A stretch of 64,000 nt of DNA from an uncultured Candidatus Saccharibacteria bacterium (GCA_964642305.1 CAZXOE010000004.1:7894-71893); one strand, 5' to 3'. Shown: positions 2,625-15,723, counted from the stretch's first letter. Numbers and translations are program-made. Notes: generated by a model not told the origin, from the letters alone.

Positions 2625-3035
2625 TTAGGTCGCGTAGGCGACTTCTTGTTGTGATTTTGCAGGTTTTGACAACATTGTCCTGGAATCACCCATAAGCGAA
2701 ATGGCCTTGAGAAACGCGCCACTGATCACAAATGCTTCCGTAGACGCCCCACACGGACATAGGCACAAATACGAACGTGCTTCATCATTCTTTGTGCTTA
2801 CTGCAACAACTGTCACGTAAGCTGTCTCGCCTAACGTCAAGCATTCGTCGCAAAAATCTGCGAGTTTCTTCGCCTTGAGCGTCCCTATTGCTTTACGCAG
2901 GGAATCAATTCGCGGAATGATTGCTTGCTTGAGATGCAAAGCATTGAGCTCCATCGCTACCGTTTGAATTGCCTTAAAGCCATGTGGTAGTGGGATCTCA
3001 ATGACTTCTGGTGCTGCAATTTTGGCTTTTGCCAT
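2625..3035 (-). CDS. Hypothetical protein (Cys-rich LCLCPCG motif)
   Basis: Clean 136-aa ORF with good codon structure. Family not recognised. Confidence 0.5.
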   Translation of the reverse strand: MAKAKIAAPEVIEIPLPHGFKAIQTVAMELNALHLKQAIIPRIDSLRKAIGTLKAKKLADFCDECLTLGETAYVTVVAVSTKNDEARSYLCLCPCGASTEAFVISGAFLKAISLMGDSRTMLSKPAKSQQEVAYAT

Positions 3036-3172
3036 AACACTTCCCCCTTAAATTGAGTTTAAAAAAACAAAAAAAGGCAAAGAACTTCTTGCCGTATATA
3101 AGCATAGCACTCTCAAAAATAGAGTCAAGTTCAATTAGGATTCAAGGCTTATCAACACTACTTTTTTAGTTG

Positions 3173-3244
3173 TGCCCTCGGCAGGAATCGAACCTACATC
3201 TACTCCTTAGGACGGAACTGTTCTATCCATTGAACTACGAGGGC
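3173..3244 (-). tRNA. tRNA-Arg (anticodon CCT)
   Basis: Reverse complement GCCCTCG-TA-GTTC-AATGGATA-GAAC-A-GTTCC-GTCCTAA-GGAGT-AGAT-GTAGG-TTCGATT-CCTGC-CGAGGGC-A. Anticodon loop gives U33, CCT, A37. Confidence 0.85.
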
Positions 3245-3296
3245 AGAAAAAGGGGCAAATGCCCCTTTAAATCTTTACTTAATACTTTACAAAATA

Positions 3297-3530
3297 CTAC
3301 AAACCAAGCATGCTTGAGAGTTTTGATTTATCAAAACCAACAGCCATTTCATCTCCTACAAAGATTACCGGGACTCCCATTTGCCCGCTCTTCTCAATCA
3401 TCTCCTTTCGTTTTTCAAGATCTGTGCCCACGTTATACTCAGTGTAGTTCACATTATTTTCTGTAAAGAACTCCTTTGCCATTTTACAATATCCGCATGT
3501 TGGCGTTGTATAAATTGTTACTTCTTTCAT
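3297..3530 (-). CDS. Glutaredoxin-like (NrdH/Grx) small redox protein
   Basis: TCGYCKMAKEF CxxC motif, then VPVIFVGD. Start taken at MKEVTIY; the ORF extends to 3569. Confidence 0.7.
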   Translation of the reverse strand: MKEVTIYTTPTCGYCKMAKEFFTENNVNYTEYNVGTDLEKRKEMIEKSGQMGVPVIFVGDEMAVGFDKSKLSSMLGL

Positions 3531-3657
3531 AAGTTTAAAATTAAATTCTATCAAAATGGGTTTCCCCAAGAACCTGTCTATTTTACCATATGGAGCGATT
3601 AGACGCCAGTCTTTTCTGTTGAGCTAATATAAGTGCGATAAACGATTACTCCATCAA

Positions 3658-3750
3658 TAAATGGTTAATTTTGGAGAGCAATGTTAGAGCGGGCGGTGTA
3701 AAATCCAGTTACCTAGAGTCATGCAGAGCCCATAAGGGTGGTGCGGCCGT
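3658..3750 (+). repeat. Copy A of a ~95-nt direct repeat flanking the peptidase gene
   Basis: Aligns to 4481-4578 with shared blocks ggttaatttt, gagagcaatg, tt.gagcg, taaaatc, tta.ctagag and cag.gccca.aag, roughly 70-75% identity. Confidence 0.6.
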
Positions 3751-3800
3751 TCCTAAGGGCTTCTGAGGCGTCAGTGGGCATATATGTTATTATTTAATAA

Positions 3801-4457
3801 ATGAAAAGAGCACTTATTACAGGTTCAGAAACTTTTGGAAAATATTTAGCTAACCCTACTAAATGGCTAGCGCTCTTTGCAGACGGTAAAATAATTGCGG
3901 ATTACGAGATTCACTCTTTAGTTTTTCCAGCCATTGTATTATTTCCCGAAGGAGCAGAGGACCCAGGAGAAGTAATAATGAAAAAAGCTCAAGAAATAAA
4001 CGTAGATGTAATTCTTTCTTTTGGTATGGCTTCAGAGGTAAAGGGATTTCGTTTGGAGCAAACGGGAATAAATTGGATTTATAATGAAAAGTACCTTTCC
4101 TCTTTTGAAAACAACAGACCAGTTGATATAACACAGCCAGAAAAAGAAAAGATCAAAACCGATCTATCACATTGGGACATAGAAAAAATGCAGGGACTTT
4201 TTACTAAAGCAAATATTCCTTTACAATCAGAAATTTCTGATGACGCAGGTCAATATGCTTGTAATGGTTGGATTTACAGAACTTTGCTTGCAATGAGAAA
4301 ACAAAAACTTAACATTCCTTATTTGTTTGTTCATTGTTCATGCACAGAAGAAGCGGTAGAGCTTATTCCAGATTTTGATAGAAAAAATAGACTACTTATT
4401 AAAAAGGAAGACACGCTGAAAGCCTTGGAAATTATTTTACAGTCATGTAAGAGTTAG
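3801..4457 (+). CDS. Pyroglutamyl-peptidase I-like (peptidase C15 family)
   Basis: N-terminal ALITGSETFG (compare Pcp VLVTGFEPFG), DAGQYACNGW (Pcp catalytic Cys region SAGTFVCN) and a downstream HCS. Confidence 0.65.
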   Translation: MKRALITGSETFGKYLANPTKWLALFADGKIIADYEIHSLVFPAIVLFPEGAEDPGEVIMKKAQEINVDVILSFGMASEVKGFRLEQTGINWIYNEKYLSSFENNRPVDITQPEKEKIKTDLSHWDIEKMQGLFTKANIPLQSEISDDAGQYACNGWIYRTLLAMRKQKLNIPYLFVHCSCTEEAVELIPDFDRKNRLLIKKEDTLKALEIILQSCKS

Positions 4458-4480
4458 AGATTATACCAAGGGGTAGTCCT

Positions 4481-4578
4481 AAATTGGTTAATTTTTGAGA
4501 GCAATGGTTGAGCGAGAAACATAAAATCTCTTTACTTAGAGCCTCACAGAAGCCCACAAGTGCATTGTGGGGCGGGTT
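4481..4578 (+). repeat. Copy B of the ~95-nt direct repeat
   Basis: See copy A. Copy B carries an internal hairpin cccacaa-gtgca-ttgtggg. Confidence 0.6.
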
Positions 4579-4671
4579 TTTGGAAAAAGTTACCTGACAC
4601 CCATACTCATTATGTGAATGACACATGAGAGAATATTATTAGAACACACAAAATTCAAAAGAATGGTGGCT

Positions 4672-4706
4672 GTCCCCATTTCCCGTCCCCATTTCCCCAT
4701 TTCCCT
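4672..4706. repeat. Short tandem repeat (gtccccatttccc x2 plus a partial unit)
   Basis: gtccccatttcccgtccccatttccccatttccc read directly from the sequence. Confidence 0.7.
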
Positions 4707-4735
4707 TCTAAACAGTGGTGTTTTTAATTAGCATT

Positions 4736-6187
4736 TTATGCAGATAAGATTTGTTGTAATCTCTCATTGAGAAATATGTCAAAGGTGTCTTCAGAATCTT
4801 TTCTTCCCTCAATCATTTTAACAATATCATTATCTCCCAAGGGCAGAACAATACATCTATGTCTCAAATAAATTTCTTTTGATTTTTTAATATCATCTTC
4901 GGTCACACCATCTCTTTGTATGAGAAAAATAAAATCTCTACCATTTTTAATGGTATAAGCGAGACTCTGATTAAATTCCTTATTGCTAACATTGGTTAAT
5001 CCATAATTTTTTGCCTCGATAATGATAAGTCCAGCTTTGATTTGTTGGTTTCTTAGGACATTGAAAAATGCTGTTGTTGAAGCGTTTAAGAAATTAAGGT
5101 CATATCTATATATCTCTCCATGAGAAGTAGTTTCAATTTTCCCTCTCAATAAATTTTCTCCATATATAACCTTAAATATCTTGAGAAGAAGCAGGCTATA
5201 TTCTCGTGACGATTTACTTCCTGTTGGAAGCGCCTTAATCTCATTAATATATGTTTGCCACACAATTTTTTGCTTACGAGGTCTTCTTTTTGAATCAAAT
5301 TGGTGCGGATTTTCAGCATACCCCTTAACCAACTCAGGTCGTTCTTGCGCAATAATTCTTGCTGCCAAGTGTACTGATCCATACTTACTTTCAAGACTTT
5401 TCTCAATGTCTTTGATTTTAACTTTTGGTTCTTTCCCAATGGTACTCAGTATCTTTTCCCTAGAAAGTTCCTCGTTCTGTAATACATACTTAAGACACCC
5501 ATTATAAAACTCACTCGTAGACAGAATGGGCATCTTCCTTGATATGTGTCTAGGTACCAACAGGCGATACCCACCATTTTCATAGTGTGGTAAATCTACT
5601 TTTATCGCAGGTACCCACTTTCTTGTATTAAAATCATACCCATTAGGAAGACTAACAGAAATTGTTTTAAGGTTAAAAGTCTTTACTTGCTCTTTTGTGT
5701 ACTCAATTAAATTAAAAAGGGCGAAATTCCCAACCAAGTCTGATAATAAATCAGGTCCAATACCCTCAATTTGGATAGAGGTTTTTGCTAGTGCCTCAAT
5801 CCCAAACTCTGCTATCTCGGTGTTGTCAAAAATTGCTTCCTTAATAAGTCCCGCCCTTTCAAGGTGCGTACCTTTGCCTTTAACGCCCTCTTTGCAATAA
5901 CCAAGACCAATTGCTTGAACTTCAGGAAAGTTGAGAGCAATGAGCAGTTGCTCCTCTGAGATTTTATTAGATCTATAATCGACTAAAAGTTGATTAAAAT
6001 AATTAAAAATATGTGCTTGAACCTCATGCCATTCTGGGTCCCTTGATTCGTACATTAAATATAAGTCTAAATACGCACGTACGTCACCCTTAGGATCTGG
6101 GGTAATAAAATCCAATTCAAATGGTTTATAATTACTGCACAGTTCATCTAGAGATATTTTTTCTTCTTGGGTTGGAGGTGTATTCAT
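4736..6187 (-). CDS. Hypothetical 483-aa protein with C-terminal PD-(D/E)xK-like nuclease motif (candidate restriction/defence nuclease)
   Basis: C-terminus ...YRYDLNFLN...GLIIIEAKNYG fits the D...ExK pattern. No P-loop. Sits 5 nt downstream of the GIY-YIG gene in an AT-rich island next to R-M genes. Confidence 0.45.
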   Translation of the reverse strand: MNTPPTQEEKISLDELCSNYKPFELDFITPDPKGDVRAYLDLYLMYESRDPEWHEVQAHIFNYFNQLLVDYRSNKISEEQLLIALNFPEVQAIGLGYCKEGVKGKGTHLERAGLIKEAIFDNTEIAEFGIEALAKTSIQIEGIGPDLLSDLVGNFALFNLIEYTKEQVKTFNLKTISVSLPNGYDFNTRKWVPAIKVDLPHYENGGYRLLVPRHISRKMPILSTSEFYNGCLKYVLQNEELSREKILSTIGKEPKVKIKDIEKSLESKYGSVHLAARIIAQERPELVKGYAENPHQFDSKRRPRKQKIVWQTYINEIKALPTGSKSSREYSLLLLKIFKVIYGENLLRGKIETTSHGEIYRYDLNFLNASTTAFFNVLRNQQIKAGLIIIEAKNYGLTNVSNKEFNQSLAYTIKNGRDFIFLIQRDGVTEDDIKKSKEIYLRHRCIVLPLGDNDIVKMIEGRKDSEDTFDIFLNERLQQILSA

Positions 6188-6192
6188 AAACT

Positions 6193-6549
6193 TTATTCAA
6201 AATTAATGTCAATTGCTCCAACGTCTGGAATTCGCTCAACGCAGGTTGGGCTATATTTTTCATAAAGTGCTACTTCTGCGCCGTCGCGATTATTTTGTGT
6301 TGATATTGCGCATGCTCTGAAAAAACATCTGTAATTTTTAAGAAGTTTATTGCAACAAGAATTTACCTCAGTGTCGAGCAAGTGTTGCCCTAAACGCTCC
6401 TTTAAGTTTTCTGCTTGTCCAACATAGTGAACATAGTATTTATTGTTGCTTGAATCAAGGTGTGATATGCGGTATACGCCAGCTGCTTCGTTTATTTTGT
6501 TTACCTCTTCAGAGTTAAGAGGGTTTAATTTCGTCCAGTTTAGTTCCAT
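6193..6549 (-). CDS. GIY-YIG nuclease domain protein
   Basis: GVYRI...(10 aa)...YYVHYVGQA...LKERLGQH gives the GIY, YIG and conserved Arg spacing of the GIY-YIG fold. 118 aa. Confidence 0.7.
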   Translation of the reverse strand: MELNWTKLNPLNSEEVNKINEAAGVYRISHLDSSNNKYYVHYVGQAENLKERLGQHLLDTEVNSCCNKLLKNYRCFFRACAISTQNNRDGAEVALYEKYSPTCVERIPDVGAIDINFE

Positions 6550-6627
6550 GTTTTTTAAAATTATGATTAATAATACTGTTGATAACTACTACTTGCATAC
6601 TTTCTATTTATTTTCTATAATAGCACC
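6550..6627. promoter_or_regulatory. Divergent promoter region between the GIY-YIG operon and the LexA-methyltransferase gene
   Basis: 78-bp AT-rich spacer containing tactgttgataactactac (a CTGT half-site at 6574-6592) and a tataat immediately before the 6628 start. Confidence 0.4.
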
Positions 6628-8493
6628 ATGATAACAAAAAAGCAAACACAAGTCCTTGATTTCATAAAAACCTACAGAGCAAAAAACAGTTACTCCCCAT
6701 CTCTTGAAGAAATAAAGAAAAAGTTTAAGTTTGCTTCTGTTTCAACTGCGCATTACTACATTTGCAAGTTGCAGAATGCAGGTTTTTTGAATAAAGAGCA
6801 TAACCAACCGCGTGCTGTTTCGACAGTTGAAGCCAAACAGACAATAGAAATTCCTATTTTGGGTGCTATTGCGGCTGGTCAGCCGATTGAGGCAATAGAA
6901 ATCCCAGACGAAATGATAACGATCACAAGAGACGAGATTGGGAGACAAGGCAAGCACTATGCTTTACGTGTTCAGGGCAGTAGTATGATTGATGAGGGCA
7001 TTTTCGATGGTGATATTGTGGTTATACGAAAACAAGAAGTAGCAGAAAACGGGCAGACTGTTGTCGCTGTGATTGACGACAACGAAGCGACTCTCAAAAA
7101 ATTGTATCGTGAAAATGGAAGGTTTAGATTGCAACCCGCAAACCCGACCTTATTCCCAATCTATCGAGACGAGGTAGAGGTGAGGGGTGTAGTTGTTAAA
7201 ATTATTCGCAATCTTGAATCACAACTGGATCAAGGGCAATCGAGGAATGAAAAGTATGTGCGGAAAATAGACTACTCGTGGGATTATAGAGGAGAAAAAA
7301 CAAAAGCACACACACACGGAATTCATACCTATCCGGCAATGTTTATTCCTCAAGTGGGACGAAGATTGTTAGAAACATACAGCAAAGAAGGTGACACTAT
7401 CTGCGATATTTTTTGTGGCTCTGGCTCAGCATTAGTTGAAAGCAGATTGATAGGGAGAAATGCCTACGGCATCGATCTTAATCCTCTGGCTATTTTCCTT
7501 GCACATGCGAAAACAACCCCAATTAATCCGCAAAAACTAACAAAAGAGTATCTCGCATTGCTTAACAGGGTTGAAAAAATAAAGGATAGCGAAGTACAAA
7601 GACCAGATTTTAAAAATATTGATTTTTGGTTTAAAGATATAGCAATCGTTAAGCTTACCAAGTTGAAAAAAGCTATACGAGAAATAAAAGACGACGCAAT
7701 TCAGAATTTTTTGATGGTTGCCTTTAGCGAGACGGTTCGTTATTCCTCAAACACAAAAACTGGCGAATTTAAATTGGTACGTGTTAAAGGCGACAAATTG
7801 GAAAAACACAATCCTGATGTTATTGGTATCTTTCGCAAACACGCGGAGAAAAACATTGCGGGGATGACTGATTTTTACAAAGATGCAAAAAAAGGTGTGT
7901 GGACGAAAATAATCTATGGTGATTCATCAAAAGATAACGGTATTAAAGCAAGTTCCATTGATTGCATCATTACTTCTCCGCCGTATGGCGATAGTCGAAC
8001 AACAGTTGCTTACGGGCAATTTTCTCGACTCTCGGCTCAATGGATTGATATGTTTGAAAACCCAAATGACGCCTCTGGACTAGACAATGAGCTTCTTGGT
8101 GGCAGGGCAACCAAGCATTTAGCTCATACGCTTTCATCTGAGTATCTCAAAGAATCATTGGAGAAAATTGCGAAACAGGACGAAGCAAGGGCGAAGGACG
8201 TACTGAGTTTCAATATTGGTTTGAATGAATGTTTGAAACAAGCGCACAGGATACTTAAGCCAGGAAAATATTTTTGTCTTGTTATTGGGAATAGGTTAGT
8301 TAAGCAGGTGAGAATCCCCACCGACTTTATTATTGCCGAGTTAGCAGAAAAAATTGGATTTACTTGTGAAGATATTATCGTACGAAATATTCCAGGGAAA
8401 AGAATGCCTATAAAAAATTCTCCAACAAATATTGTCGGGGCTCTTGAAGAAACGATGAACAAAGAGAGTATTGTGGTGTTAAGGAAAAACTAA
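6628..8493 (+). CDS. Fusion protein: complete LexA repressor (wHTH + S24 peptidase) joined to an N4/N6 DNA methyltransferase (probable m4C MTase of the adjacent R-M system)
   Basis: aa 1-195 align with LexA throughout: QTQVLDFI, IPILGAIAAGQP (Ala-Gly cleavage site), RVQGSSM (catalytic Ser), GDIVVI, GQTVVAVIDDNEATLKKL (catalytic Lys), GVVVKIIRN. aa ~230-621 carry HTYPAMFIPQ + DIFCGSGS (motif X/I, AdoMet binding) and IDCIITSPPYGD (motif IV, SPPY). One uninterrupted 621-codon ORF. Confidence 0.85.
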   Translation: MITKKQTQVLDFIKTYRAKNSYSPSLEEIKKKFKFASVSTAHYYICKLQNAGFLNKEHNQPRAVSTVEAKQTIEIPILGAIAAGQPIEAIEIPDEMITITRDEIGRQGKHYALRVQGSSMIDEGIFDGDIVVIRKQEVAENGQTVVAVIDDNEATLKKLYRENGRFRLQPANPTLFPIYRDEVEVRGVVVKIIRNLESQLDQGQSRNEKYVRKIDYSWDYRGEKTKAHTHGIHTYPAMFIPQVGRRLLETYSKEGDTICDIFCGSGSALVESRLIGRNAYGIDLNPLAIFLAHAKTTPINPQKLTKEYLALLNRVEKIKDSEVQRPDFKNIDFWFKDIAIVKLTKLKKAIREIKDDAIQNFLMVAFSETVRYSSNTKTGEFKLVRVKGDKLEKHNPDVIGIFRKHAEKNIAGMTDFYKDAKKGVWTKIIYGDSSKDNGIKASSIDCIITSPPYGDSRTTVAYGQFSRLSAQWIDMFENPNDASGLDNELLGGRATKHLAHTLSSEYLKESLEKIAKQDEARAKDVLSFNIGLNECLKQAHRILKPGKYFCLVIGNRLVKQVRIPTDFIIAELAEKIGFTCEDIIVRNIPGKRMPIKNSPTNIVGALEETMNKESIVVLRKN

Positions 8494-9191
8494 ATTAGCC
8501 CAACTTTTGTATCAAAGCAGTTGTAAAGTTGCTTTATCTTTACTCTAAAGCCGGTGCCATGATTACGAACGGAACCATCTGGACGATAGTACATTCTGAA
8601 ATCTACAACAAGATAATCTTTTCTTACCATATTTTTGAAGTGCTCAAAATCAAAGCCTTCTAAAAAATATGCTTCGTTGAAATGAAAATGTTCAACGCCC
8701 TTTATCTCTTTGCAGTCCGCTAACACATACACGAGAGCCGGAAGTTTTGCTTCAAACTTTTGTTTTAAGTCTTCCATATCCCAGTAGATGTTTAGTCGTT
8801 TACCCTTGCCAACAACTCGGACCTTGCCTTTCTCTACTTTAAGTTTTAATCCTTGATTATTGTACCGTTTACACGAAAGAGTGCTGTGTAATTCCTTGGC
8901 ACGTCCGTTATCCCTTTTTGAGTACCCAAAACCATCAAGCAGTGTTCTGTCTCGATCGCCACCTTTTGGTTGTGGCTCCAATGTAAAGAGCGTCAGCATA
9001 GAGACCGCATTTTTTCGGTACGCCTTAAGTTCAGCTATTTCACCAATATCTGGAAGTGGAATATTATTTTCTTTTATTCCCAGTAAGTCTTCAAGTGTTT
9101 TTCCAATACCCGTATCGCCCTTGCGGTGAGTTTTAATAAACCCTAGAGCTTTTATACTTTTAAGTTTTTTCTTGAGTTCTTGGAGTGTCAT
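8490..9191 (-). CDS. Type II restriction endonuclease, MutH/MvaI-BcnI-like
   Basis: N-terminal KGDTGIGKTLEDLLGIKENNIPLPDIGEIAELKA matches the MutH-fold REase signature (KG..G..LE.LLG...N...PD...ELK). Start MTLQELK at 9191 sits 1 nt after the C-gene stop. 3' end overlaps the MTase stop by 4 nt, so the genes are convergent. Confidence 0.7.
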   Translation of the reverse strand: MTLQELKKKLKSIKALGFIKTHRKGDTGIGKTLEDLLGIKENNIPLPDIGEIAELKAYRKNAVSMLTLFTLEPQPKGGDRDRTLLDGFGYSKRDNGRAKELHSTLSCKRYNNQGLKLKVEKGKVRVVGKGKRLNIYWDMEDLKQKFEAKLPALVYVLADCKEIKGVEHFHFNEAYFLEGFDFEHFKNMVRKDYLVVDFRMYYRPDGSVRNHGTGFRVKIKQLYNCFDTKVGLI

Positions 9192-9192
9192 A

Positions 9193-9429
9193 TTATTTAA
9201 TGAAAAATAAAACGTCTTTTTTATAGATATTTGCAAACTTTTTAATCTCGACGACATCAAGTCGTCTTTCACCAGACTCAATTTTTGATATATAGGATTG
9301 TGGCTTACCGAGTTTATCGGCAACCTCTTGCTGTGCAAGCCCAGCCTCAATCCGCGCCGTTTTTAAGCGTTCTATGATTTCCTTATAGTCTTTTGCGTAA
9401 ACGGATCTGTTCATAAGTATTTCAATCAT
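9193..9429 (-). CDS. Controller (C) protein, XRE-family HTH regulator of the R-M system
   Basis: 78 aa. LAQQEVADKLGKPQSYISKIESGERRLDVVEI is a Cro/C1-type HTH. Start MIEILMNR has an AAGGA SD 5 nt upstream. The stop abuts the REase start, the classic C-R arrangement. Confidence 0.75.
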   Translation of the reverse strand: MIEILMNRSVYAKDYKEIIERLKTARIEAGLAQQEVADKLGKPQSYISKIESGERRLDVVEIKKFANIYKKDVLFFIK

Positions 9430-9876: not shown

Positions 9877-9878
9877 TG

Positions 9879-9949
9879 TGCGGGTAGCGAGAATCGAACT
9901 CGCGTCTCAACCTTGGGAAGGTCGCATCATACCACTAAACTATACCCGC
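9879..9949 (-). tRNA. tRNA-Gly (anticodon CCC)
   Basis: Reverse complement GCGGGTATAGTTTAGTGGTATGATGCGACCTTCCCAAGGTTGAGACGCGAGTTCGATTCTCGCTACCCGCA. Anticodon stem CGACC/GGTTG, loop TTCCCAA. Closely resembles E. coli tRNA-Gly. Confidence 0.85.
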
Positions 9950-15283: not shown

Positions 15284-15315
15284 AAAAAGACCGCGGTTTT
15301 AACCACGGTCTTTTT
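15284..15315 (-). terminator. Intrinsic terminator of rnpB
   Basis: aaaagaccgtgg-ttaaaa-ccgcggtcttttt on the minus strand, immediately 3' of the RNase P RNA. Confidence 0.7.
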
Positions 15316-15320
15316 ATGTA

Positions 15321-15692
15321 CTCATATCGATAAGCCGAATTCTGTCCCAGCCCCAGTTTTGAAATATCGAAAATTCAATTTCTCAAAACTGGAGCTGGGG
15401 ATGATCATTTATCTGGGAGTGCGATTACTCGCACCCTCGAGCGGCACCCTGCGCTTACGCGCAGTACGGCCTTGCACCCAGGTAAGGATTTAGCCGTTTC
15501 ACCCCGCATGTTGCCATGCGGACTTACCCACAAGGGGTATCTCTTTCTTTCGTTAGAGACGTCTCTGCTCGCACCTCTGAAATTACTTTCGACGGGCGTT
15601 ACCCGCTACCCTGCTCCGAGCATCATTTCTGATACTTGGGAGTGTTCGGACTTTCCTCCCCCACTTGCGTGGGAGCAACCATCTGATATGGG
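15321..15692 (-). ncRNA. rnpB: RNase P RNA (bacterial type A)
   Basis: The minus strand contains GGGGAGGAAAGTCCGAAC (P4 5' strand; E. coli GGGGAGGAAAGUCCGGGC), GCAGGGTAGCGGGTAACGCCCG (E. coli GCAGGGUGCCAGGUAACGCCUGG), GGGTGAAACGG, GCAAGGCC and the 3' ACAGAATTCGGCTTATCGATATGAG (E. coli ACAGAACCCGGCUUAUCGGUCAG). P1 pairs cccatatcaga with tcgatatgag. A TATAAT lies about 7 nt upstream of the 5' end. Confidence 0.9.
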
Positions 15693-15723
15693 TATAACAA
15701 TTATACCACTATATTACTAAAAA

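Follow-up and report, generated by a model that had tools for sequence, protein, structure and literature searches.

Results

We consider it somewhat probable that the two direct repeats (copies A and B) flanking a pyroglutamyl-peptidase-like gene, pcp, in the 64,000-nt stretch of DNA analysed here (the window) are paralogs of a lineage-specific small RNA (sRNA) gene of Minisyncoccia/Paceibacteria (CPR), the unit extending from a -10 box to a U-run and the module acting as a homologous anchor for foreign cassettes. Membership in a family, conservation, genomic context, covariation within a terminator and a strand bias are directly supported by the data described below. The original prediction had left a choice between cassette boundaries (recombination sites), a duplicated small-RNA gene and terminator/UTR modules. 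As a whole this set is partly borne out, the duplicated small-RNA gene being the best fit: each copy is a self-contained unit of a -10 box, ~100 nt of conserved noncoding sequence and a 3' hairpin, and the family is conserved across genomes whose orthologous proteins are 60-69% identical.

Two diverged copies of one element flank pcp

The predicted repeat pair, placed at 3658-3750 and 4481-4578 in the same orientation, is confirmed. Copy A (3659-3727) and copy B (4482-4550) align without gaps over 69 nt with 74% identity, 823 nt apart, and a 21-nt block, GGTTAATTTTNGAGAGCAATG, occurs exactly twice in the 64 kb, where 0.03 occurrences are expected. Both copies are also recovered by R2, a covariance model built from 11 copies of other contigs with the window sequences left out (copy B, 4486-4585, 98.4 bits, E 2e-21; copy A, 3663-3759, 57 bits, E 1e-11). 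R2 gives no third match in the 64-kb window, the next-best score being 16 bits. In blastn against the canonical copies, i.e. those standing beside a wHTH gene, homology spans 4455-4583 for B and 3655-3740 for A (Table 1).

Over 89 alignment columns, A and B are 70% identical. Identity with the remaining copies is 63-76% for A, B is 74-82% identical to the canonical copies, and each of the two is closer to the consensus (70-82%) and to copies of other genomes than to its partner. Hence, the pair is neither a fresh tandem duplication nor an att pair, and A and B are best regarded as old paralogs or separately acquired copies.

The -10 box of copy B aligns with the GATTAT conserved in all canonical copies, and an inner alternative hairpin is found at 4553-4571. 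On the opposite strand, the wHTH promoter remnant is followed by a mere 4-codon ORF. Having retained promoter, full motif and terminator, copy B is probably functional, with its RNA still being made. In copy A, C replaces T at the last position of the -10 hexamer, and the sequence downstream of the hairpin, GGCCGTTCCTAAGGG, is without a T-run. The GATTAC box, the lost U-run and the lowest score in the family indicate that copy A is probably decaying.

As predicted, pcp is the only gene between the two copies. Its GC is low (0.32-0.37, like that of the island on its right), the residues aligning with the Glu/Cys/His triad are kept (by eye), and it has no PADLOC match. Copy A ends ~40 nt upstream. 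The box TGTTATTAT ahead of pcp was not picked up by a -35-dependent promoter scan; by analogy with the TGGTATAAT-8 nt-ATG arrangement of the wHTH gene described below, it suggests that pcp may have a promoter of its own and a near-leaderless mRNA.

Other features of the surroundings are as follows. To the left, positions 2625-3569 hold a 136-aa ORF without a Pfam match, a tRNA-Arg(CCT) and a glutaredoxin gene (Grx 3297-3554). This trio, which separates a conserved 104-aa ORF from copy A, is missing in the syntenic locus L009, so that the variable region may start left of copy A. To the right, the 150-nt spacer between the copy B terminator and the stop codon of the PDC-M36A-like gene (4586-4735) contains three tandem TCCCCATTTCCC units (4673-4708), followed by a small AAACA/TGTTT hairpin and a T-run, and gives a weak LhrC-like match (E 7.9); this TCCCCATTTCCC spacer may correspond to a terminator region or to an sRNA rich in C and U. 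On the minus strand, 15315-15694 encodes an RNase P RNA of bacterial class A (111.8 bits, gathering score 100), with the long insertions and shortened helices typical of the divergent CPR version. Together with three tRNAs, RNase P makes up the whole of the Rfam matches in the window at the gathering threshold.

Table 1 Features of the window around the two copies and the adjoining island
Feature	Position	Strand	Basis and remarks
Degenerate -10 remnant GATTAC of copy A	3644-3649	+	Shared -10; aligned with GGGATTATACCAA in canonical copies
Copy A	3659-3761	+	Diverged paralog, probably decaying; R1 78 bits, R2 57 bits
Copy A 3' hairpin	3722-3745	+	TGCA/TGCG outer stem, CCC-ATAA-GGG tip; alignment columns 66-90
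Extended -10-like box TGTTATTAT	3785-3793	+	7 nt before the pcp ATG; read from sequence
pcp, pyroglutamyl-peptidase-like gene (Peptidase_C15)	3801-4457	+	Pfam E 3.3e-12
Copy B promoter-like site TTTACA-17-GATTAT	4436-4464	+	Promoter scan; predicted start near 4471
Extended -10 TGGTATAAT	4460-4468	-	Putative wHTH promoter remnant, facing the 3' end of pcp
Copy B	4482-4585	+	Apparently intact; R1 109 bits, R2 98.4 bits
Copy B predicted intrinsic terminator	4541-4581	+	Hairpin 4541-4573, T-run 4577-4581; terminator scan, RNAalifold
Defence island, variable, right of copy B	4736-9350	mixed	Pfam, PADLOC
PDC-M36A-like/DUF8370 gene	4736-6187	-	Convergent with copy B
GIY-YIG gene	6193-6549	-	Island gene
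LexA-S24-MTase fusion gene	6628-8493	+	First plus-strand gene after copy B
MvaI/BcnI REase gene	8490-9350	-	Island gene
tRNA-Gly	9878-9949	-	After the island, with an HTH_3 gene

The element belongs to a family conserved in CPR assemblies

The family comprises 14 copies, A and B included, on 10 contigs, with a unit of ~105-125 nt. Every copy comes from a CPR (Minisyncoccia/Paceibacteria) assembly, and the MAGs of the related loci are labelled Minisyncoccia/Paceibacterota. A search for additional copies, which had been put forward as a check on the repeat pair, yielded 12 beyond A and B, on contigs that include the window's own. A pattern scan of GTDB species genomes gave three of them (L007, L008 and L009). 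Homologs of the wHTH protein were collected and their contigs read, which gave copies in L011, L015, L016, L017, L018, L023 and L024/25, and the covariance model R1 added one further full copy, in L015.

The window's own contig (L011, 131 kb, ENA assembly ERZ27247837) carries copy C at 5868-5971 on the minus strand, ~9.5 kb left of window position 1 and in the orientation opposite to A and B. Copy C adjoins the wHTH gene P0007, and past the terminator of copy C comes a type III R-M island (Mtase, ResIII, HTH). The window's genome has three copies, and two other assemblies have at least two each.

At the gathering threshold, no Rfam 15 family covers the copies (window; L007-L009), and at E<=10 none matches over the element (window 3500-4800; L023/L024). 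Neither scans of viral_contigs with two patterns nor a phage blastn gave a match. A metagenome scan with GGTTANTTTTNGAGAGCAATG returned solely a chance match within a coding gene (L010); this pattern was too strict, since copy C reads GAGAAC.

Locus L009 shares its gene order with the window (valS-PrsW-HSP20-tRNA-Phe-98/104-aa ORF) and, having one element copy and no pcp, is the closest stand-in for a pcp-less variant of the window locus. Its HSP20 and its small ORF are 69% and 60% identical to the window proteins, and its element is 90% identical at the nucleotide level to copy C, 81% to copy B and 74% to copy A. More generally, copies at the same position in different genomes are 80-93% identical, and copies within one genome 70-80%. 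The comparison of ~90% identity for the element with 60-69% for the proteins points to strong purifying selection on the canonical copies.

Variable defence islands lie beyond the terminator

Beyond the terminator of the element, different and mostly convergent defence genes are found in nearly every genome: HsdR in L008, L009 and L017, type III R-M genes in L011, AAA_13 and HEPN_AbiV in L015, Ymh in L016, DUF2130/DUF2779 in L018 and PDDEXK in L023. R-M types I, II and III and AbiV are all represented among the modules beyond the canonical copy. In the window, the island that follows copy B gives PADLOC matches with E values of 1e-24, 7e-131 and 3e-23. GC is 0.30-0.40 in pcp and this island and 0.40-0.50 leftward, a drop which suggests that copy A is the left edge of foreign DNA and that copy B stands between two blocks.

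Within the island, the LexA-S24-MTase gene encodes one 621-aa protein made of a LexA DNA-binding domain, an S24 self-cleaving peptidase and a type II N6/N4 DNA methyltransferase. It adjoins the MvaI/BcnI enzyme and the HTH_3 controller, an unusual architecture of SOS-style R-M control.

A second bracketed cassette is found in L015, where two copies in the same orientation (970-1073 and 2868-2971, both on the minus strand) surround two genes for membrane proteins (198 and 310 aa), neither of which matches Pfam or PADLOC. The order is wHTH gene, copy, two-gene cassette, remnant wHTH start (MPNETASNP…), copy, AbiV island, and the remnant start belongs to the outer copy (L015b). The edges of homology vary from locus to locus: copy B ends at the -10 box, whereas the wHTH gene is kept over ~35 nt in L015b and over ~147 nt in L009 (a remnant of 49 codons). 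In L017, an inverted fragment of the element 5' end (17/17 nt, ~2785-2801; AAATTGGTTAATTTTT), with the TTGGTATATT box, lies ~90 nt beyond the intact copy and next to HsdR; it is probably the scar of an earlier recombination.

Such layouts could mean that the element is a DNA-level recombination site, an att- or attC-like boundary where cassettes such as pcp would be inserted and cut out by a recombinase. The bracketing of cassettes in two genomes, the different islands abutting one and the same element end in every genome and the truncated inverted fragment of L017 fit this idea, and the hairpin could fold as single-stranded DNA, like attC. However, A and B, at merely 70% identity and each nearer to copies of other genomes, are far from near-identical, and the edges of homology differ among B, L015b and L009. 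The unit lacks complementarity between its 5' and 3' ends, RYYYAAC/GTTRRRY cores are absent, and the T-run after the hairpin indicates transcription termination. No integrase or recombinase gene was found among the Pfam calls in the 10-kb flanks of the window locus and the 3-6 kb flanks of 10 other loci, and inspection by eye of the island's left edge (4586-4735) revealed no repeat of the tRNA-Gly 3' end. Overall, a recombination site is unlikely. What stands of the proposed cassette boundaries is the position of the copies at the edges of variable blocks, in L015 as in the window; att/attC sites in the strict sense they are not.

Canonical copies share a -10 box with a divergent wHTH gene

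The canonical copy stands head-to-head with a minus-strand wHTH gene, and one -10 box, GATTAT on the plus strand and TATAAT on the minus strand, is common to both. In L007, L008 and L009, ~45 nt separate the element from the start of a minus-strand ORF whose product opens with MPDETT…, and the extended -10 TGGTATAAT, identical in these three loci and L011, is positioned 8 nt ahead of the wHTH ATG. Such a short distance suggests a near-leaderless wHTH mRNA. The stretch …SSGIYRDYTK*, which could be read as the conserved C-terminus of an upstream protein, is in fact the reverse complement of the 5' end of this gene (MPDETT…).

On the plus strand, the canonical copies have TTGTTT-17-GATTAT upstream, a match to the consensus and a predicted promoter; the conservation of the -10 is accounted for equally well by the wHTH promoter on the opposite strand. 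In more distant wHTH orthologs (L019-L022), the -10 and the ATG are kept and the element is absent upstream, which makes the element separable from the wHTH promoter.

The wHTH ORF of L007 (2225-2974, minus strand) encodes 249 aa with a C-terminal winged-helix domain. Across the protein family (L007; P0001-P0014; L011 6001-6642), a conserved, proline-rich N-terminus (MPDETTSNPAP…PETPISTPPEA) is followed by a hypervariable P/T/E/V linker carrying a GQMGGNEP motif, and the C-terminal winged helix resembles that of Fic proteins. One MAG, JBARNW01, has two copies of the module. Contigs L011 and L012 have the R-M island, copy C, the wHTH gene and an 80-aa ORF in common and diverge beyond ~6930 (NorB side in one case, DoxX/Mur ligase/RuvA in the other), through either a strain rearrangement or an assembly join just beyond the wHTH gene. 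Many other contigs end less than 1 kb from the wHTH gene.

A covarying terminator hairpin points to a plus-strand transcript

The unit is made, in this order, of the GATTAT box, ~18 nt of variable sequence, a near-invariant block (GGTTA-N-TTTT-N-GAGAGCAATGTTAGAGCGGGAGGCATAAAATCTC), a short linker, a 33-nt hairpin (GCC-A-CRCAG-AG-CCC-ACAA-GGG-CA-TTGTG-G-GGC) and a T-run. Hairpin and T-run are found together in 11 of the 14 copies (B and 10 of the 12 elsewhere), the T-run being missing in A and in L015b and weak in L016. An RNAalifold model comprising the P2 stem and the 3' hairpin is 92.6% paired over the 11 non-window copies, against 22-54% in slid controls. Four hairpin pairs are altered on both sides (7 cells), a result matched by 0 of 500 shuffles; with 13-14 related sequences in all, shared ancestry can inflate such tests. 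In L015, the stem has been rebuilt by three consecutive compensatory pairs (GCC-TTGTAG / TTACAGGC). In addition, G-U cells outnumber A-C cells by 26 to 4 in favour of the plus strand, and the alifold energy is -12.2 kcal/mol on the plus strand as compared to -8.8 kcal/mol on the minus strand. The G-U excess and the better energy indicate a plus-strand transcript ending at this terminator.

The alignment and covariance analysis suggested for the two copies thus yielded 70-74% identity and, in the 3' hairpin, the four double-changed pairs. As to the terminator/UTR module, the 3' part does correspond to an intrinsic terminator; the rest of that option did not hold.

For the 5' two-thirds of the element, three competing folds were compared: a GAGC/GAGC hairpin with GGGA/UCUC, a GAGA/UCUC helix enclosing AUGUU/GGCAU, and a long UUAG-GCG-GAGG hairpin. 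Double-sided covariation was found in none of them, and single-sequence MFEs disagree. Single-sequence folding of the copies is no better than that of shuffles (z +0.9, -0.3).

The element is not protein-coding. Recurrent frames are interrupted, the only recurrent frame having an in-frame stop in copy B (...ESNG*); substitutions between L007 and L009 fall mostly on codon positions 1-2 rather than concentrating on the third; and gene callers placed no gene over the element. On neither strand did a small-ORF reading hold, given the interrupted frames and substitutions that are not synonymous-like. Known RNA classes were rejected as well. The stretch AAGGGTGGTGCGG of copy A is T-box-like, but it has no model match and is unconserved in the other copies; tracrRNA, SRP RNA and 5S have neither a model match nor their diagnostic motifs in the element; and neither ARAGORN nor the Rfam tRNA model detected a tRNA/tmRNA cloverleaf, the diagnostic motifs being missing here too.

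These features also bear on the idea that the element is regulatory DNA of the wHTH gene, with an array of AGAGC operators bound by the wHTH protein, the hairpin as an insulator and A and B as relics. The four AGAGC-like direct repeats that can be read in the element could be protein-binding DNA. In L015, however, the first two of them changed in a complementary manner (GCACAA/TTGTGC), not in parallel, and the G-U excess affects one strand. In 10 loci, the element abuts the wHTH promoter, and the adjacent gene encodes a DNA-binding wHTH protein, but orphan copies deprived of this gene (B, L009) retain promoter and terminator, and L019-L022 do without the element. We hold such an operator array to be quite unlikely.

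A cis-acting leader (riboswitch or attenuator) controlling the downstream gene, pcp in the case of copy A, is highly improbable. Copy A does lie 40 nt ahead of pcp and lacks a terminator, so that read-through is possible, and the 3' arm can adopt two alternative hairpins; both of them, however, precede one U-run, which leaves no on/off logic, pcp has an extended -10 of its own, and no Rfam riboswitch matches. Moreover, at least 10 of the 14 copies are followed by a convergent gene (e.g. B, L008, L009, L011, L015-L018), L007 being an exception with a plus-strand gene ~220 nt past the element. The original prediction had rightly set aside a leader for both copies, on the correct observation that copy B is upstream of no plus-strand gene: the PDC-M36A-like gene that follows it is convergent, and the next plus-strand gene starts at 6628.

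We give as little credence to a small non-autonomous (MITE-like) mobile element copying itself around the genome, since, despite three copies in one genome and at least two in each of two other assemblies, terminal inverted repeats and target-site duplications are not visible, copies from one genome diverged long ago (70-80% identity, against 80-93% between genomes at the same position), the position beside the wHTH gene is conserved and 64 kb contain only two matches.

Discussion

The sRNA gene is the reading that we favour. Its transcript, of ~110-120 nt, would run from the -10 box through ~60 nt of highly conserved sequence to the hairpin and U-run. A single box would work on two strands, as GATTAT for the RNA and as TATAAT for the divergent wHTH gene. 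Divergent transcription from symmetric -10 elements was reportedly described by Warman et al. in 2021 (Nat Microbiol); here, one TATAAT/ATTATA box would serve both the wHTH gene and the RNA, whose plus-strand start is predicted. With its 5' half conserved in sequence and its 3' terminator structured, the RNA may be, as a working guess, a trans-acting or protein-binding sRNA. Pairing of the RNA with the start of the wHTH mRNA (GGUUAGUUU with AAACAACC) was dropped as a candidate, being unconserved in copy C. Overall, that the element is transcribed, that it has served as a recombination anchor and that its RNA may regulate in trans are inferences.

Trans-encoded bacterial sRNA genes have their own promoter and a Rho-independent terminator, and some of them (Qrr, LhrC, PrrF) are multicopy paralogs. 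The predicted RNA gene is similar in size (~110 nt), in its self-contained organization from a -10 to a hairpin and U-run, in its conserved 5' part and structured 3' terminator, and in the presence of several diverged paralogs per genome. It differs in being restricted to CPR, in having no Rfam match and in its -10 common with a divergent protein gene.

The genomic context can also be compared to known systems. A 2008 study (J Bacteriol 190:4075) is said to have described, in Salmonella, a conserved sRNA locus with different foreign DNA segments alongside in different strains. The element is comparable in that differing foreign DNA lies beside a conserved, putative sRNA; in Salmonella, an enterobacterium, however, the segments derive from prophages or islands and bear the signatures of integrases, whereas here no integrase was seen, the cargo is defence genes and the sRNA module itself is duplicated. 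tRNA and tmRNA genes are integration targets of islands, where a site-specific integrase gives rise to short near-identical repeats of the 3' end. Here too, the 3' side borders variable islands, and extra partial copies would correspond to old events. In contrast, what is repeated here is the entire unit with its promoter, at 70% identity and with ragged edges, and there is no tRNA-like fold. Finally, integron arrays have attC sites (e.g. the VCR repeats of Vibrio) with R''/R' cores and the tyrosine recombinase IntI. The layout is alike, with a divergent gene and a promoter, then ~100-nt structured repeats between cassettes, but the divergent gene is wHTH and not IntI, there is neither a long imperfect palindrome nor R''/R' core sites, and the element-flanked cassettes are multi-gene and of mixed orientation.

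For the sRNA gene, the following history can be proposed. The very conserved module (wHTH 5' end, shared promoter, RNA and terminator) would offer a homologous anchor to incoming foreign cassettes. Recombination at this anchor, combined with an illegitimate join at the opposite end, would bring in a cassette together with an extra module and leave older copies behind. With one extra copy per event, the bracketed cassettes of the window (A-pcp-B-island) and of L015 would be obtained. This anchor and duplication mechanism is suggested by homology that is one-sided with ragged edges and by the gene starts left behind; the anchor/HFIR history, drawn from two loci, the window and L015, is a narrative. 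A bolder proposal, which we regard as doubtful, is that in CPR the wHTH-promoter-sRNA module is dedicated to receiving defence islands, as a landing pad with an anchor of ~130-300 bp and an sRNA duplicated at each capture, where the RNA (or its pairing with wHTH) might control or recruit islands. Such a landing pad would play the part of tRNA/tmRNA att sites, or of an integron platform, without an integrase.

To our knowledge, almost nothing is known of regulatory RNAs in CPR/Patescibacteria, for which there are no cultured models and no classical sRNA chaperones. In this context, the element is suggestive of a small RNA family uncatalogued so far, with a link to the turnover of defence islands. 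Its 80-93% identity, as compared to ~60-70% for proteins, suggests an important cellular task. Its fixed position beside ever-different R-M and abortive-infection modules marks a defence-island hotspot in the phylum, and the covariance model provides a simple handle for locating defence islands in fragmented metagenome assemblies. If the element does take part in the capture of islands, it would represent a new route of cassette acquisition without a dedicated recombinase.
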